Shown: positions 29,144 through 59,117, counted from the first letter of the stretch. The stretch is DNA of 64,000 bases from a bacterium (GCA_021796115.1 JAJYOP010000002.1:70842-134841), one strand, 5' to 3'. The notes: generated from the sequence alone by a model not told the origin. Made by a program: numbers and translations.

Positions 29144-29342
29144 CGTTATAATTGGTAAATTTTAGCTAAATAACCCCTCTTAAAACATTCAGATTATATT
29201 CCAATGTTATTTCGCAGTCAATCAATTTTCAATCAACTCTCAAAAACTATTTCCTGCATAGTAATGCCGTTAAATGCCGAGAAAACGCAAAAGATTTTTT
29301 TGCACCTTTGCGTCTTCCTTGCGATTTTGCGCTTGCCTTAGC

Positions 29343-31616
29343 TTAAAACTTTGAATATCTCAAGCGTAGAGAGTTAGTCACAACCGAAAGGGAGCTAAAA
29401 CTCATGGCTGCGGCAGCAATAACCGGGCTTAGTAAAATTCCGAATAATGGGTACAAAATGCCGGCGGCTACCGGGATGCCCAGGCTGTTATAGACAAAAG
29501 CAAAAAAGAGGTTTTGCCGGATATTTTTCATAATTATGCGGCTGAAAATTAATGTTTTGGCAATGCCATTCAAATCGCCTTTAACTAGGGCGATATCCGA
29601 ACTCTCAATAGCGATATCCGTGCCAGTTCCCATCGCCACCCCAATATCTGATTCCGATAAAGCCGGGGCATCATTTATTCCGTCACCGGCCATTAACGGG
29701 TGCTTACCTTTTTGTTTCAGCTCTTTAACTATGGCCAGTTTATCTTGCGGTTTAAGTGCGGCGTGCACCTCATCTATCCCCAATCCTCTGGCGATAGCCA
29801 GAGCGGTTAATTGATTATCGCCGGTAACCATAACTACCCTTAAGCCCATTGCATGCAGTTTTTTTAGCGCGAGCGGCGTTGTTTCTTTGATGGGATCGGA
29901 AATTGCAAAAAACCCGGCAATTTCCATATCGATTGCCAGCCAAACAATTGTTTCAGTGTTAGCCTGAAATTGTGCGGCTTTATTTTTCAATTCACCGTCA
30001 ATTATAATTTTAGCGCCATTTAAAAAATCTTCTTTGCCGAGCAAAATATTTTTTCCTTTGACGATAGCCTTGGCCCCCATGCCGGTAATTGTTTCAAATT
30101 CTTCGGCGTTTGGAATTTCGAATTTTCGTTCTTTTGCATAATCAACAATCGCTATTGCCAAAGGGTGTTCGCTTAATAGTTCAATAGCGGCGGCACTCTC
30201 TAAAAAAATTTGTTCGCTGAAGTTTTTATTAACTGTTATAGTGATTACGCGTGGCTTGCCTAAAGTCAACGTTCCGGTTTTATCGACCAAAACATGCGTT
30301 ATCTTATCTGCTTTCTCAATCGCCTCCGCATTTTTAATTAAAATTCCCGATAGTGCTGCGCGGCCTACCCCAACCATAACCGACATCGGCGTTGCAAGGC
30401 CAAGCGCGCATGGACAGGCAATAATTAAAACCGAAATCGCATTAACTACGGCATAGGAGAGCGAAGGCTTGGAGCCGAAAACAAGCCAAGCAAAAAAAGT
30501 AATTACCGCCGTAAAGATAACGGTTGGCACAAAATAGCTGGAAACCTTATCGGCTAACTTTTGTATTGGCGCGCGACTCCTTTGCGCGGTTTCAACCATC
30601 TGGATAATTTGCGAAAGCAAGGTTTCCGCGCCAACTTTTTCTGCGCGCATCAGAAAAGTTCCGGTTTGATTAATCGTTGCGCCGGCAACTTTATCACCTG
30701 TGCCCTTTTGGAGTGGTACGGGTTCTCCGGAAAGCATTGACTCGTCGATTGCGCTTTGGCCTTCAATAATTATCCCGTCAACAGGGACTTTCTCGCCAGG
30801 CTTAACGCGCAGTAAATCCCCTTTTTTTACTGCTCCAATCTTTACTTCTTCTTCCCGGCCATTCGTTACAAGATGGGCATTTTTTGCCGCAAACCCGAGA
30901 AGAGCCTTAATGGCATGCCCGGTTTTGTTTCTTGCTTTCGCTTCCAATAATTGGCCTAAAAGAACGAGAAGCGTAATCATGGCGGCGGCTTCGAAATAAA
31001 GATTAATCCGTCCGGCGGCTTTAAGCGAACTGGGGAAAATTTTTGGCAAAATTACCGCAAATAAACTATAGCCGTAAGCTGATATTACACCCAGCGATAT
31101 CAAAGTGAACATATTCAGGGATCTGGAAATTAATGATTTCAGGGCTTTAATATGAAAAAATCCTCCCGACCAAAAGACAACCGGCGTTGCGAATACTAAT
31201 TGAACCCAGGAAGATATTTTATACGAAAGTATTGCCGATATTTTCAGGAAAGGAAATATTTCACCGGCGTTTAAGATAATGACGGGGGCAGCGAAAATAA
31301 TTCCCAACCAGAACTTAATGAAGTAAGAACGAATTGATACCTCTTCTAAAGTATCTTTGGCTGCGCCAACCGGTTCAAGAGCCATTCCGCATTTAGGGCA
31401 ATCTCCGAAATTTTTTTGACGGATCTCCGGATGCATCGGGCAGGTAAAAAAGGTACTTTCTTTTGGGGCAGCTAACTTTTCACCTTCGTTTTGTATTTGT
31501 TTTAAAAATTTTTCCCGGCAATGCCGGCTGCAGAAAAAGTATTCCTGCCGGTTATCTTTAAGCATTAAATCCTTATTTTTTTCAACTGACATTTTGCAGA
31601 CAGGATCAATTGGCAT
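29343..31616 (-). CDS. copA: Copper-translocating P1B-type ATPase with N-terminal TRASH/YHS-like and Cys-rich metal-binding modules
   Basis: CPC transmembrane (TM) motif, [16 protein letters not shown]-terminus has PVCKMSV...CSRHC and CPMHPE...CPKCGM. Confidence 0.9.
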
Positions 31617-31971
31617 GAAGTGTATTGATTAGGGTGCGGTTGTATTTAGATATTAATACTATGAACTATTGCAATTCACGTAATTTACGCCGTGCGCGCT
31701 TTTGTTTAAGCAACAATACCTTATCGGCAAGTTCGTTCATTAGCCGTATACCTTTGAGCTTTTTCAGCGCAGATATTTTAGAGCTACGTATCAACCTTTG
31801 TTTTCGTGTTTCCCATCCAAACATCATTTTAAAATATTTCTTCTTTAATTTCTGCGAATCCCGACCGGCGGTTTCGTTTACCGAAGGGCAAAGCAGAACT
31901 GGGCACTGTAAAGCAAGTTATAAAATTTTTCCAGCACGATTATACTAAAGAATTTGGGCTAATTCAAGACT

Positions 31972-57349: not shown

Positions 57350-57353
57350 AAAC

Positions 57354-59117
57354 ATGGAAAACAAATATTTTATTTATGCCAGGAAGTCAACGGAAAGTGA
57401 GGATAGGCAGATTTTAAGCATTGAGTCTCAGCTAAAAGAAGCAAACGACCTGGCCAAAAGGTATAATTTAAAAGTAATAGATATTTTAACCGAAGCCAAA
57501 TCTGCTAAAGCTCCAGGCAGGCCCATTTTTAACCAGATGATTGAAAGAATCAAAAAAGAAGAGGCTGTTGGAATTATTTGCTGGAAGCTCAATAGGCTTG
57601 CAAGGAATCCTGTAGATGGCGGACAAATCATTTGGTTGCTTCAACAAGGCATCATAAAGCATATTATCACTGCGGAAAGAAGTTATTATCCGGATGATAA
57701 CACTATACCGATAACGGTTGAATTCGGAATGGCTAATCAGTATGTGCGGGATCTAACCAGAGATACTAAAAGAGGTTTAAAAGCTAAATTAGAGAAAGGG
57801 TGGATACCTTGTATGCCTCCTTTAGGCTGGTTAAATAATCAAGGGCTAGATAAATCTGAAAATGCTATTATAAAAGACCCTGAACGCTTTCATCTCATAA
57901 GAAAAATGTGGGAGCTGATGTTAACAGGAATTCACACGCCCCCAAAGATACAGGAAATCGTAAACAACGAATGGGGATTTAGGACAAGAATATCAAAGCG
58001 GACAGGCGGTAAGCCTTTATCCCGAAGCGCCATTTATAAAATATTCACTAATCCCTTTTATTATGGAATGATTGAGTATAATGGAGAGCTTTGCTCTGGA
58101 AAGCATGAGCCTATGGTTACTAAAGAAGAATTTGATAGGGTACAGCTTCTGCTTGGCAGGAAAGGTAACCCCAGGCCAAAGACGCATACTTTTGCCTTCA
58201 CAGGAGAAATAAAATGCGCTGAATGTGGAGCATCTGTCACCGCAGAAGTGAAAACCAAAATATGCAAATCCGGAGAAATCCACTATTACATCTACTATCA
58301 TTGTACGAAAAGGAAAAAAGGTGTTAAATGCTCACAGCGTGCTATCAGAAGCGAAGACCTGGAACGTCAGATAAAAGAAATTTTATCAAAGCTTAATATC
58401 GATAATGATTTTTTGAATTTAGCTTTAAAATATCTAAGCAAAATACATGAAGATAAAATTAAAGACGAAAATACAATCAAGAAATCAATTGAAACAGCTC
58501 GTGAAGGCATTGAAAAACAACTTGATAATTTAACTGGCATACGGTTGAAGGGATTGATTGATGACCAGGAATATATACAACAGAAAAACAAGTTACTTAC
58601 AGAAAAGACACAGCTTGAAGAAAAACTAGGTAATACCGGATACAGGCAAGATAACTGGAAGGAATTATCAGAAAAAAGCTTTAATTTTGCTCATCATGCA
58701 CCATATTGGTTTGATAATGGCAGCTTAATTGATAAGAAAACAATTCTCCATACTATAGGTTCGAACTGTATACTTAAAGACAGAAAACTCTCTATTTCCT
58801 TAAAGAATCCCTGGTTAATCATCAAGGAGGGGTTGGAAAAGGTTGAGCAAGAAAAAAACAGGTTAGAACCATTGCAATCTATTGAAAACAAAGGAGAAAA
58901 TTCCTGTCACTCCCTCATAAATCCATATTGGCTGCCCGGTGAGGACTCGAACCTCAAAAAACAGACCCAAATTCTGCTGTGTTACCAATTACACTACCGG
59001 GCAAATTTAATTTTCAGGTTAATTACCCCCTCACTTCGTTTGGGGGCAATTCGGCTACGCATTTTTCCAGACAGGAAGTCTGGTAAAATGCTGCCTCATT
59101 GCACTACCGGGCAATGA
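57354..59117 (+). CDS. Large serine recombinase (resolvase + recombinase + zinc-ribbon + coiled-coil)
   Basis: YARKSTESEDRQ catalytic Ser motif and ICWKLNRLARN. Zn ribbon reads CAECG...YYHCTKRKKGVKC. GAGGGA RBS before the ATG at 57354. The last 60-odd codons read through antisense tRNA-Gln and a repeat element. Confidence 0.85.
   Translation: MENKYFIYARKSTESEDRQILSIESQLKEANDLAKRYNLKVIDILTEAKSAKAPGRPIFNQMIERIKKEEAVGIICWKLNRLARNPVDGGQIIWLLQQGIIKHIITAERSYYPDDNTIPITVEFGMANQYVRDLTRDTKRGLKAKLEKGWIPCMPPLGWLNNQGLDKSENAIIKDPERFHLIRKMWELMLTGIHTPPKIQEIVNNEWGFRTRISKRTGGKPLSRSAIYKIFTNPFYYGMIEYNGELCSGKHEPMVTKEEFDRVQLLLGRKGNPRPKTHTFAFTGEIKCAECGASVTAEVKTKICKSGEIHYYIYYHCTKRKKGVKCSQRAIRSEDLERQIKEILSKLNIDNDFLNLALKYLSKIHEDKIKDENTIKKSIETAREGIEKQLDNLTGIRLKGLIDDQEYIQQKNKLLTEKTQLEEKLGNTGYRQDNWKELSEKSFNFAHHAPYWFDNGSLIDKKTILHTIGSNCILKDRKLSISLKNPWLIIKEGLEKVEQEKNRLEPLQSIENKGENSCHSLINPYWLPGEDSNLKKQTQILLCYQLHYRANLIFRLITPSLRLGAIRLRIFPDRKSGKMLPHCTTGQ
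58929..59003 (-). tRNA. tRNA-Gln (anticodon UUG), CCA encoded
   Basis: Hand-folded 75-nt cloverleaf. Acceptor TGCCCGG/CCGGGCA with U1-A72 and G73 (the bacterial tRNA-Gln identity pattern). D stem GTGT/ACAC. Anticodon stem GCAGA/TCTGT with loop AUUUGGG. T arm TGAGG-TTCGAGT-CCTCA. Confidence 0.85.
59022..59092. repeat. Family-2 intergenic repeat copy directly upstream of tRNA-Gln
   Basis: attaccccctcacttcgtttgggggcaattcggctacgcatttttccagacaggaagtctggtaaaatgc. Contains two hairpins (ccccc/ggggg and ccagac/gtctgg) around the conserved AATTCG..CTA..CATTTTTCC. Confidence 0.8.
59098..59114. repeat. 17-bp duplicate of the tRNA-Gln 5' end (16/17 identical to 58988-59004)
   Basis: attGcactaccgggcaa versus attAcactaccgggcaa, 110 bp apart, in direct orientation. 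Confidence 0.85.

Follow-up and report, generated by a model that had tools for sequence, protein, structure and literature searches.

A 27-kb island at the 3′ end of tRNA-Gln in an Omnitrophota genome, and the tRNA-associated family of its large serine recombinase

Classical tRNA-gene islands are those with tyrosine integrases and the Islander signature (Williams 2002; Hudson et al. 2015, PMC4383910). A serine integrase, DsiB, has been described for the ssrA islands of Dehalococcoides (McMurdie et al. 2011, PMC3146451), and large serine integrases are known from the phages A118/LI, phiC31 and Bxb1 (PMC3783163); in A118-type integrases, the zinc-ribbon-domain (ZD) motif is shifted by 5 bp between attB and attP (Rutherford et al. 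2013, PMC3783163).

Here we analyse a 64,000-nt stretch of DNA (the window) from an uncultivated Omnitrophota bacterium, taken from the MAG GCA_021796115.1 (JAJYOP010000002.1:70842-134841). Our reading, to which we assign a probability of roughly 0.8, is that positions 31902-58931 are one 27-kb integrative genomic island, inserted site-specifically at tRNA-Gln(UUG) by its own large serine recombinase (LSR). The comparisons below establish the insertion relative to sister species, its boundaries at nucleotide level, the intactness of the LSR and the family-wide association of such LSRs with tRNA 3′ ends.

The interrupted gene string and its attachment sites

On the minus strand of the window the gene order is ispE-spoVG-tRNA-Gln-[block]-glmU-prs-ctc-pth, as an earlier note on this DNA had it, and tRNA calls and Pfam agree. 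Pfam identifies ispE (59832-60794), spoVG (59285-59758) and glmU (27854-29143), and also backs prs, L25/ctc and pth among the window ORFs; the intact tRNA-Gln(UUG) (58929-59003, minus strand; ARAGORN; Rfam, 56.7 bits) is the sole tRNA gene that ARAGORN called in the 64 kb. The string TPR-tktN-tktC-ispE-spoVG-tRNA-Gln-glmU-prs-ctc-pth-rpsF-ssb-rplI-dnaB is uninterrupted in >20 Omnitrophota relatives, and the spacing from tRNA-Gln to glmU is 13-44 bp in L009, L013, L014, L017, L019, L021 and L023; the 29.8-kb interruption is thus genuine and confined to this lineage. The block had been placed at 29144-59117. The interruption stands, but 59117 does not mark where the island ends: the recombinase ORF has its stop there, past the tRNA and ~110 nt further, and the accessory DNA stops at 58931.

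At the other end, the earlier note had counted a metal efflux ATPase as island cargo and had left the boundary either before or after copA. The gene is real (29343-31616, minus strand; Pfam), but it is not cargo, as it is present at the site in island-free sisters: the sister-species contigs L182 and L183 represent an empty site with the order spoVG-tRNA-Gln-(216 bp)-copA-glmU, and copA likewise adjoins glmU in L082 and L083. A conserved small gene also outside the island, orf53 (31666-31827, minus strand), is recognised by its homologues upstream of glmU; it lies directly upstream of glmU in L002, L004 and L005, and upstream of copA in the window. By these gene orders, copA and orf53 are an older, separate acquisition common to the sister species. 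The empty site that the earlier note had suggested seeking in relatives is thus found in L182/L183, where tRNA-Gln is joined to copA with no island, and in the >20 relatives as well.

The left boundary falls after copA. In the sister contig L185, the 53 nt directly 3′ of tRNA-Gln match window positions 31901-31849, beginning from the last 4 nt of the tRNA (77% identity; 18/19 in the first 19 nt; blastn E = 2e-5). This alignment, of 53 nt and to a single sister contig, fixes the position of attL and the 3-bp core; the other sister, L182, has a trailer that is unrelated. Positions 31849-31901 (minus strand) are accordingly the displaced original tRNA-Gln trailer (the attB B arm), which 27 kb now separate from tRNA-Gln. 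When attL, attR and the sister attB are compared, the common core CTG falls at 31899-31901 in attL, inside the 29.1-32.0 kb proposed earlier for an att search, and at 58932-58934 in attR, where it is the antisense of tRNA-Gln positions C71-A72-G73. These cores flank the integrated island (31902-58931, 27,030 bp), which is absent from L182/L183.

Joining the island ends gives a reconstructed attP of …AATCCATATTGG CTG GGCACTGTAAAGC…, and rejoining the host arms gives an attB of …GGGCAAAGCAGAA CTG CCCGGTGAGGAC…. The bases common to both are CTG/CAG only (tRNA 71-73), so the 2-bp crossover would have to sit within this core, in which case the body of tRNA-Gln would remain host DNA. A shared core of just 3 bp matches the expectation for a serine integrase. 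The repeat search found no repeat of the tRNA-Gln 3′ end at <=3-4 mismatches, and the reconstructed attP junction had no exact match in viral contigs. The island contributes the encoded CCA of tRNA-Gln (58929-58931), which at the same time serves as a Trp codon of the recombinase; the sister tRNA-Gln genes in L182 and L185 have no encoded CCA. When the two half-sites are inspected by eye, obvious inverted symmetry is not visible between them.

The large serine recombinase and its family

The earlier proposal, that an adjacent LSR had integrated a horizontally acquired island at the tRNA-Gln 3′ end, draws support from the empty site and the att cores, and the block does begin at this 3′ end beside the recombinase gene, which abuts and overlaps the tRNA (57339-58934). 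In its integrated form the gene has 592 codons (57339-59117, plus strand) and points out of the island into tRNA-Gln on the opposite strand; residues 1-532 are its own sequence, and codons 533-592 lie in antisense tRNA-Gln and in the DNA that precedes the tRNA. The protein has the Pfam domains Resolvase (4e-17), Recombinase (PF07508) and Zn_ribbon_recom (PF13408), gives an integrase match in PHROG (2e-71) and matches C-terminal-domain structures of the phage A118 integrase (4KIS/6DNW; 1.6e-9 to 1.9e-9), while Y13, R15, S17, D22, Q24, R86 and R89 are invariant in a 22-sequence alignment that includes it. By these features it is a bona fide, intact large serine recombinase, and we infer that it carried out the insertion.

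ORF reconstruction identified a detached LSR 3′ end of 38 codons plus a stop (GTVKQVIKFF...ENVK; 31902-32018, plus strand), which continues the reading frame of 57339-58934 only when the island is circular (attP form). Fusing 58934 to 31902 restores an LSR ORF of 570 aa, inside the 450-700 aa range of large serine recombinases, with a family-typical tail and a stop that overlaps the ATG of orf363 by 11 nt. Scored with a profile built from the family's free-type tails, its 18-aa junction-proximal tail comes 42nd among 127,888 six-frame positions; the conserved Arg-Thr of the family tail is replaced by Ile-Lys, and in the P′ arm of the island the family motif is present only in degenerate form (AGTTATAAA vs AGTTCGAAC). 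The LSR start is overlapped by the end of a gene for an Xre-type HTH protein (56540-57349, plus strand; Pfam HTH_31), whose C-terminal ~45 aa are also conserved ahead of the nearest LSR homologues (tblastn; L164, L146, L165/L166, L084, L085); this protein is a candidate regulator or directionality factor. A promoter-like site, TTGACT-16-TATAAT (56506-56533, plus strand; called by consensus match only), lies ahead of the pair.

Members of the widespread family to which the LSR belongs are habitually located at tRNA 3′ ends. Of the 80 homologue loci, 37 have a tRNA gene overlapping the end of the LSR ORF (binomial P ~1e-71, with the tRNA density of these loci as background), and 15 more of the homologue contigs end <=120 nt from the match, leaving no room to judge tRNA presence; every one of the 37 overlapping tRNAs is on the strand opposite to the LSR, with its 3′ end inward. 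One free member (L115) and one integrated in tRNA-Asn (L125) encode proteins 91% identical, and their DNA is identical through TGGCTCCG and divergent thereafter. Counted from the tRNA end, the CGAAC motif occupies nt 20-24 in integrated forms and nt 25-29 in free ones; this T-loop-like motif is thus 5 bp further out in unintegrated forms, a shift that the attP/attB rule for serine integrases predicts and that equals the ZD shift of A118-type integrases.

We favour a mechanism in which the target was the extreme 3′ end of tRNA-Gln(UUG), with the island replacing only the tRNA trailer and supplying the encoded CCA. In the circular form, attP lies inside the LSR gene, and its 570-codon ORF would run straight into orf363; on integration, the last 38 LSR codons were left at the far island end (31902-32018), and the ORF now enters the antisense tRNA. 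Recognition of the tRNA half-site probably relies on the near-universal T-loop sequence in the role of the ZD motif, which would explain the occurrence of the LSR family on many different tRNA species.

Cargo, composition and rival explanations

Besides an exosortase/PEP-CTERM and exopolysaccharide (EPS) system, the cargo includes an AbiE toxin-antitoxin pair, a regulator of the HD-GYP type and remnants of decayed genes. The exosortase region (34446-38111) encodes an exosortase (36343-37179, minus strand; Pfam PF09721, 4e-57; TIGR02602, 150 bits against a cut-off of 105.6), EpsI (35693-36463, minus; NCBIfam TIGR02914 above cut-off), three PEP-CTERM proteins (34446-34970 and 34987-35445, plus; 37206-37709, minus; Pfam, NCBIfam) and a PEP-CTERM pseudogene (37833-38111, minus). 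The three proteins terminate in VPEP/IPEP, a TM segment and a basic tail, and these ends are encoded by a 96-nt repeat, 93% identical; among the named exosortase subtypes XrtA, XrtB and XrtV, none reaches its NCBIfam cut-off. With the linked EPS locus, the exosortase, EpsI and PEP-CTERM substrates by which such systems are recognised are all present.

The EPS biosynthesis and export cluster (38205-55274, minus strand with one gene on plus; Pfam; NCBIfam TIGR03025 and TIGR01007 above cut-offs) encodes an outer-membrane barrel, a priming sugar transferase, a Wza-like exporter, a Wzc-like chain-length/tyrosine kinase, a flippase and a polymerase-like protein for export and assembly, together with GT2, GT4, WecG, a pyruvyl transferase, an F420-type reductase and a methyltransferase; the EPS_sugtrans and tyrosine-kinase domains exceed their cut-offs. 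It also holds a 566-aa protein with no assigned function (38205-39905, plus) and the AbiEi/AbiEii pair (51362-52602, minus; Pfam AbiEii 6e-15, AbiEi_4 weak), and an HTH_17 + HD-GYP-type regulator (55271-56077, minus; Pfam) stands at the head of the EPS operon. The EPS/exosortase cargo is predicted to be a self-contained system for cell-surface or matrix remodelling.

These Pfam and NCBIfam matches agree with the earlier note, which had named both the exosortase/PEP-CTERM + EPS system and a toxin-antitoxin pair. The IS3 remnant that it listed is likewise present, as the C-terminal piece of an IS3-family transposase (…FEYVEMYYNTKRAHSTPGYLSPFEFE…; 56221-56349, minus; six-frame reading, by eye) that separates the recombinase module from the cargo; present content may therefore differ from what was originally integrated. 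The RM-like (33250-33805, minus) and aroD-like (33863-34066, minus) fragments are also visible by eye in six-frame reading, but this decayed stretch (33250-34066) has no Pfam or PHROG match. With such pseudogene fragments and the IS3 remnant, the island is decayed or rearranged. Beside the detached LSR tail, orf363 (32008-33099, plus) encodes a P-loop NTPase with a C-terminal HTH and weak PHROG matches (Zot-like, DNA-binding). Pfam revealed no virion, conjugation or mobilisation genes among island ORFs of at least 150 aa, and a PHROG scan of nine island ORFs without clear function plus orf53 gave only integrase and weak regulator matches; on this coverage the island does not qualify as a prophage or integrative conjugative element.

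GC content differs modestly, at 36.4% for the whole island vs 39.3% outside, and per-gene GC and GC3 differ between the two (p = 0.02-0.04). The AT-richness claimed earlier for about 42.5-48.5 kb is real at 41-46 kb (31-34% GC vs 39-44% in the flanks, at 1-kb scale) but was overstated, the contrast being far weaker than in the spot counts; deviation is clear only at 42-45 kb, and the tetranucleotide correlation is 0.81.

One may postulate instead that the region downstream of tRNA-Gln is a hotspot that gathers unrelated DNA by several mechanisms, with the recombinase and HTH genes left over from a small element and the EPS/exosortase genes acquired independently. Recombinase-free inserts of 0.3-8.5 kb do lie between tRNA-Gln and glmU in L002, L003, L005, L007, L011, L012 and L018, that of L007 bearing solute-synthesis genes; copA is demonstrably a separate event, the IS3 remnant lies precisely where recombinase module and cargo meet, and GC is unequal among sub-blocks (34.1-38.8%). 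We nevertheless regard this patchwork as unlikely, because the host trailer is found at 31.9 kb and not beside the recombinase module, and all DNA between is therefore bracketed by a single attL/attR pair; moreover, the LSR ORF runs on through the reconstructed junction, in the same frame, to a tail of the family type, and repeat and fragment searches inside the island revealed no further att-like core accompanied by host trailer or tRNA fragments.

EPS loci are often deleted in general, and nothing specific favours an ancestral block that was deleted in the relatives; such a history is very improbable, as it needs independent precise losses in >20 lineages spread over every phylogenetic depth, two sister species among them, and the break falls on the last bases of the tRNA, with a recombinase gene spanning the junction. 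The sequence derives from a MAG, and chimeras classically arise at tRNA genes, yet an assembly or binning chimera uniting unrelated contigs at the tRNA is scarcely credible: two assemblies of run SRR13170412 cross both island junctions with kilobases either side, through the separately assembled contigs L001 (8.8 kb) and L181 (28.5 kb), and the displaced trailer and split ORF fit biological recombination.

Comparison with described elements

Read as a single integrated island, the locus resembles the DsiB islands in having a ~540-aa large serine recombinase at the island edge beside a tRNA-like gene (tmRNA there), an att repeat inside the integrase gene, integration in the 3′ part of an RNA gene whose function is kept, and adaptive cargo with transfer genes absent. 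Compared by description, it differs in its true tRNA target (Gln here and many tRNA species family-wide, not ssrA), in a crossover at 71-73 with a 3-bp core rather than in the T-loop with a 20-bp direct repeat, in lacking a DsiA-like second small serine recombinase, ParB, Mom and a pseudo-tRNA (Pfam of island ORFs; tRNA scan), and in the absence of a tandem island array. The Dehalococcoides ssrA-GI/DsiB type does not fit, given the tRNA-Gln target, the lack of a 3′-end repeat and the lack of a DsiA/ParB/Mom module. With tyrosine-integrase islands it shares insertion in the 3′ part of a preserved tRNA, an integrase gene at the tRNA-proximal edge and a site that is a hotspot in related genomes, but it has a serine recombinase, no displaced tRNA fragment and an identity of 3 bp only; an Islander-type island does not fit, as there is no Phage_integrase domain (Pfam) and no tRNA fragment in the island.

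The domain architecture, the minimal attP/attB identity and an inferred recognition motif 5 bp nearer the centre in attB than in attP are those of phage large serine integrases. To our knowledge, A118/LI, phiC31 and Bxb1 target protein-coding genes or intergenic DNA and not tRNA genes. Unlike in these phages, attP here lies inside the integrase ORF, so that integration alters the LSR C-terminus, and the island carries no phage genes. In SSV-type archaeal integrases, attP also lies within the integrase gene and the ORF is partitioned on integration; those enzymes are tyrosine recombinases whose ORF is cut near the middle and inactivated, whereas here a serine recombinase exchanges just its last 38 codons.

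The island itself is an ordinary kind of element. The interesting part is the tRNA-targeting LSR family, a preference for tRNA 3′ ends having so far been described mainly for tyrosine integrases.

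Interrupted gene order and the empty site

Read on the minus strand, the window carries, in this order, a TPR protein, two transketolase halves, ispE (59832–60794), spoVG (59285–59758) and tRNA-Gln(UUG) (58929–59003); a 29.8-kb block follows, past which glmU (27854–29143), prs, L25/ctc, pth, rpsF, ssb, rpsR, rplI and dnaB continue on the same strand. The best named relatives of the window's GlmU and IspE are all Omnitrophota. A GlmU alignment used to scan GTDB representative genomes retrieved 80 loci, although the scan missed the 83–86% identical relatives, which were obtained via exact-protein look-ups. 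More than 20 of the 80 loci (labelled Omnitrophota or Planctomycetota) have the entire string contiguous with tRNA-Gln between spoVG and glmU, and in seven of these the tRNA-Gln-to-glmU spacer is 13–44 bp. As the string is unbroken in so many relatives, the interruption is real and lineage-specific, which bears out the earlier note's claim that a housekeeping string is split at tRNA-Gln. The same interval varies in other relatives, where it holds 0.3–8.5 kb of unrelated DNA, and none of these inserts contains a recombinase. The window's SpoVG, read from an internal Met, is not on record by exact look-up; like those of relatives, it has a zinc-ribbon insertion (Zn_Ribbon_1, residues 76–95) within the SpoVG domain.

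In the contigs of the closest relatives (L082 and L083, GlmU 83–84% identical), copA lies directly upstream of glmU. A small conserved ORF of 53 codons (orf53; 31666–31827, minus strand) is found upstream of copA in the window and in L083, but directly upstream of glmU in L002, L004 and L005, so copA is an older insertion between orf53 and glmU. The decisive sister contigs, L182 and L183 (IspE 70% identical), were found through IspE homologs. They read TPR-tkt-ispE-spoVG-tRNA-Gln-216 bp-copA-glmU, an uninterrupted arrangement of the kind the earlier note had envisaged, and their alignment to the window stops at 58932 and restarts at 31618. They are the empty site, and they place copA outside the island. 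What had been proposed as a single island of about 30 kb is instead one of 27 kb that excludes copA; its left boundary, previously put either before or after copA, falls after it and is resolved to the base.

The 53 nt that follow tRNA-Gln in another sister contig (L185, IspE 75% identical) align to window positions 31901–31849 with 77% identity overall and 18/19 over the first nucleotides, the alignment starting with the last four tRNA bases; the original trailer of the tRNA therefore now lies 27 kb away from it. Comparison of the island ends (attL and attR) with the empty site of the sisters (attB) shows that they share exactly 3 bp; this core reads CTG on the plus strand, lies at 31899–31901 in attL and at 58932–58934 in attR, and corresponds to CAG at tRNA positions C71-A72-G73. 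The two cores bracket an island of 27,030 bp (31902–58931). The circle junction is reconstructed as AATCCATATTGG-CTG-GGCACTGTAAAGC (attP) and the host site as GGGCAAAGCAGAA-CTG-CCCGGTGAGGAC (attB); an exact search of viral contigs for the attP junction returned no match. Sister tRNA genes have no encoded CCA, and that of the window is supplied by the island, where it doubles as a Trp codon of the recombinase. The island interpretation is thus supported and sharpened, with ends known to the base.

Several other features were observed around this and other tRNA-Gln genes. L083 1–300 and L185 2278–2696, from the same sample (ERZ27297438), have a DUF6036 gene in common and differ upstream of it, where one contig has tRNA-Gln and the other a GIY-YIG ORF, a difference that points to variation among strains of the sister species at the tRNA-Gln site and would explain assembly breaks there. 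In the window, a segment of ~97 nt (within 59004–59113, minus strand) separates a 13-nt copy of the tRNA-Gln 5′ end (59101–59113) from the real 5′ end (58992–59004); it has a sub-threshold GA-cis RNA match at 59015–59099 (29.3 bits; gathering score 34.7) and is absent from sister contigs L182 and L185. In L003 (2066–2522) and L002 (~8650–9285), a tRNA-Gln 5′ half up to the anticodon is separated from a complete tRNA-Gln downstream by ~340 nt that contain a small GIY-YIG ORF, and L002 has an additional 39-nt 3′ half 100 nt downstream. This arrangement resembles another type of mobile unit, one that interrupts tRNA-Gln in the anticodon loop and carries a tRNA copy of its own. Elsewhere, the dnaB-bamA spacer at 22361–22448 is a short dispersed intergenic repeat that matches five intergenic spots of L082 at 79–86% identity.

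Island cargo and composition

From the tRNA end inward, the island encodes a large serine recombinase (LSR; 57339–59117, plus strand) with an overlapping Xre-type HTH gene (56540–57349, plus strand), an IS3-type transposase remnant, an HTH_17/HD-GYP regulator and a full polysaccharide locus (outer-membrane barrel, priming transferase, Wza-like and Wzc-like proteins, flippase, polymerase-like protein, four transferases, pyruvyl transferase and methyltransferase) within which lies an AbiEi/AbiEii pair. These are followed by an exosortase, EpsI, three PEP-CTERM proteins and one pseudogene, aroD-like and RM-like fragments and, last, orf363 (32008–33099, plus strand), a P-loop protein with an HTH. 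Of the cargo listed in the earlier note, all but the metal efflux ATPase (exosortase/PEP-CTERM and EPS genes, toxin-antitoxin pair, IS3 remnant and gene fragments) is contained in the 27 kb. No phage or conjugation genes were found in the island, and searches of orf363, orf566, orf84 and orf96 against Pfam, PHROG and NCBIfam gave no usable function. A 96-nt direct repeat (34854–34949 and 35344–35439, 93% identical) corresponds to the PEP-CTERM ends of two adjacent paralogs, and the break in Logan contig L001 falls within the first of the two, upstream of the repeat.

GC content is 36.4% in the island versus 39.3% outside, with the lowest stretch at 41.7–48.4 kb (34.5%), and only at 42–45 kb does tetranucleotide correlation to the remainder of the window drop to 0.81; the donor was probably compositionally similar. 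The island itself is of an ordinary kind. What merits further attention is the recombinase family, its targeting of tRNA ends and the self-overlapping attP, a variation on a known theme.

A recombinase family at tRNA 3′ ends

All three Pfam domains that define large serine recombinases are present in the recombinase ORF, which also has a strong PHROG integrase match and a match to the A118 integrase structure and keeps every family-invariant residue. A good promoter match precedes the pair formed with the overlapping HTH gene, and the C-terminal 45 residues of the HTH protein recur in conserved form upstream of the closest recombinase homologs. From codon 531 the ORF runs into the opposite-strand tRNA (WLPGEDSNL…), whereas joining 58934 to 31902 produces a 570-codon ORF ending …NPYWLGTVKQVIKFFQHDYTKEF…ENVK, such that the recombinase has 570 aa in the circle and 592 aa when integrated. 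Junction and frame were set from independent evidence before the new tail was ranked. Using a position-specific profile of 30 distinct tails from unintegrated family members, the 18 residues past the junction rank 42nd of 127,888 six-frame window positions. A regular-expression search of the window for the family tail motif (…VRT…) gave chance matches only, since the window tail has IK where the family has RT; the profile ranking is more informative. The stop of the 570-codon ORF (32016–32018) overlaps the ATG of orf363 (32008) by 11 nt, so that only in the circle would the HTH gene, recombinase and orf363 make up a single operon. At 58861–58870, and at the same position in homolog loci, GGTT[CA]GAACC codes for the family-conserved peptide R-[LF]-E-P; this sequence is T-loop-like, in sense orientation, and at ~70 nt upstream of the crossover is too distant for a normal half-site.

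Thousands of relatives with 45–67% identity are present in metagenomes. Aligning the 21 closest showed that many terminate in WLPGQDSN-type peptides, which result from translating an acceptor stem and T-arm in antisense. We fetched 80 homolog loci from metagenome contigs; a tRNA gene overlaps the ORF end in 37, in all 37 cases on the opposite strand and with the 3′ end pointing inward, and in 15 more the contig stops <120 nt from the match. The tRNAs at the 37 loci are Asn (15), His (6), Ser (6), Gln (3), Arg (2) and one each of Val, Trp, Asp, Leu and Glu. The 80 loci hold 31 other tRNAs in a total of 808 kb, a background that corresponds to a chance of ~0.4% per locus (binomial P ~1e-71). Among 120 protein cluster representatives, 38 have tRNA-antisense tails and 37 a conserved tail of the unintegrated, or free, form (…L-x-D-[DE]-V-R-T-W…), while most of the remainder stop a few codons into an apparent acceptor stem. 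Close pairs with one member in each state occur. In one of them (L115, free; L125, in tRNA-Asn; 91% protein identity), the DNA is identical up to TGGCTCCG and divergent beyond, which puts the junction at ≤8 nt from the tRNA end, in agreement with the window core. Encoded CCA is commoner in recombinase-adjacent tRNAs (23/39) than in other tRNAs (9/32) of loci L084–L164 (Fisher p = 0.016), an excess that fits CCA-supplying elements, as in the window.

tRNA genes are textbook targets of tyrosine integrases, and a serine integrase requires just a 2-bp overlap, so that the lack of a tRNA 3′-end repeat in the window is expected for the latter. According to the Islander paper (2015, PMC4383910), serine integrases were not known to use tRNA genes, and the nearest precedent is one tmRNA-specific serine recombinase, DsiB, of Dehalococcoides ssrA islands (PMC3146451). 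There too, a recombinase (~540 aa) lies at the island edge with the att repeat within its gene; unlike here, however, those islands target tmRNA with a T-loop crossover and a 20-bp repeat, and a second recombinase and tandem arrays are present (PMC3146451). A long repeat of the tyrosine or DsiB type is ruled out for the window, as neither the tRNA 3′ end nor the junction is repeated, in direct or inverted orientation, inside the block, and attL was for this reason defined by comparison; likewise, no tRNA-half repeats were found within 10 kb upstream of the 37 homolog loci.

Two other crossover positions were considered. A DsiB-like crossover in the T-loop, raised by L165 and recombinases P0123/P0128, in which tRNA-likeness ends after the T-loop, is unsupported by the window attL. 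P0128 (61% identical) is found on two contigs of one sample (L165/L166), its ORF ending with 25 nt of tRNA-like sequence that reaches no further than the T-loop, and the element carries Rep_O, primase-helicase, TIR and SpoVG-like genes. In L099, L113, L133, L149 and L150, the ORF crosses a 43-nt tRNA 3′ fragment ending in the anticodon loop and continues into a conserved tail (…DYT.PK…GLYH…), with no complete tRNA called; they may represent either another type of attP or tRNA genes interrupted by an intervening sequence. Taken as attP forms they would imply an anticodon-loop crossover, which we set aside for the window's clade because the junction falls ≤8 nt from the tRNA end both in the window/sister comparison and in the L115/L125 pair.

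The T-loop as a candidate recognition motif

When positions are numbered from the first base of the CCA complement, integrated forms (window, L125, L102) have the T-loop CGAAC at nt 20–24, and the CGAAC/AGAAC that encodes Arg-Thr of free tails lies at nt 25–29 (L115, L122; P0180 versus P0179 by codon count). In A118-type integrases, the motif read by the zinc-ribbon domain (ZD) occupies half-site positions 16–24 in attP and 11–19 in attB, and is therefore 5 bp nearer the center in attB (Rutherford et al., PMC3783163). If the TG of CTG is taken as the central dinucleotide, positions 11–19 of the tRNA half-site are GACTCGAAC, the T-loop. These positions suggest that the family may read the T-loop as its ZD motif, which would explain its range across many tRNA species. 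This is the least secure step, given that in the window itself the P′ arm carries a degenerate ZD motif (AGTTATAAA) and that by-eye inspection of the reconstructed attP and attB revealed no inverted symmetry between half-sites.

The most far-reaching interpretation, to which we give a probability of roughly 0.3, is that of a large undescribed family of tRNA-targeting LSRs, frequent among uncultivated lineages that include Omnitrophota and candidate phyla radiation (CPR) bacteria. The universal T-loop would be read as the enzyme's ZD motif, the cut would fall at the acceptor end (positions 71–73), and attP would sit in the enzyme's own 3′ coding end. Integration would then exchange the conserved C-terminal tail and detach the recombinase from the downstream gene, a built-in switch in which integrated and free enzymes would differ and the HTH-recombinase-orf363 operon would exist in the circle alone. 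A full-text literature search found no description of a tRNA-targeting serine-integrase family, although its coverage was incomplete and novelty is unproven.

A widespread serine-integrase family on tRNA 3′ ends would, if true, fill a gap beside the tyrosine integrases. Because a 3-bp core is invisible to methods that rely on displaced tRNA fragments, islands in uncultivated phyla may be under-counted. Serine integrases are preferred tools for large-DNA insertion, and a family reading a motif of nearly every tRNA could, if true, give ready landing sites in almost any genome. For Omnitrophota, the island means a complete exosortase/PEP-CTERM and exopolysaccharide system moving as one 27-kb unit.
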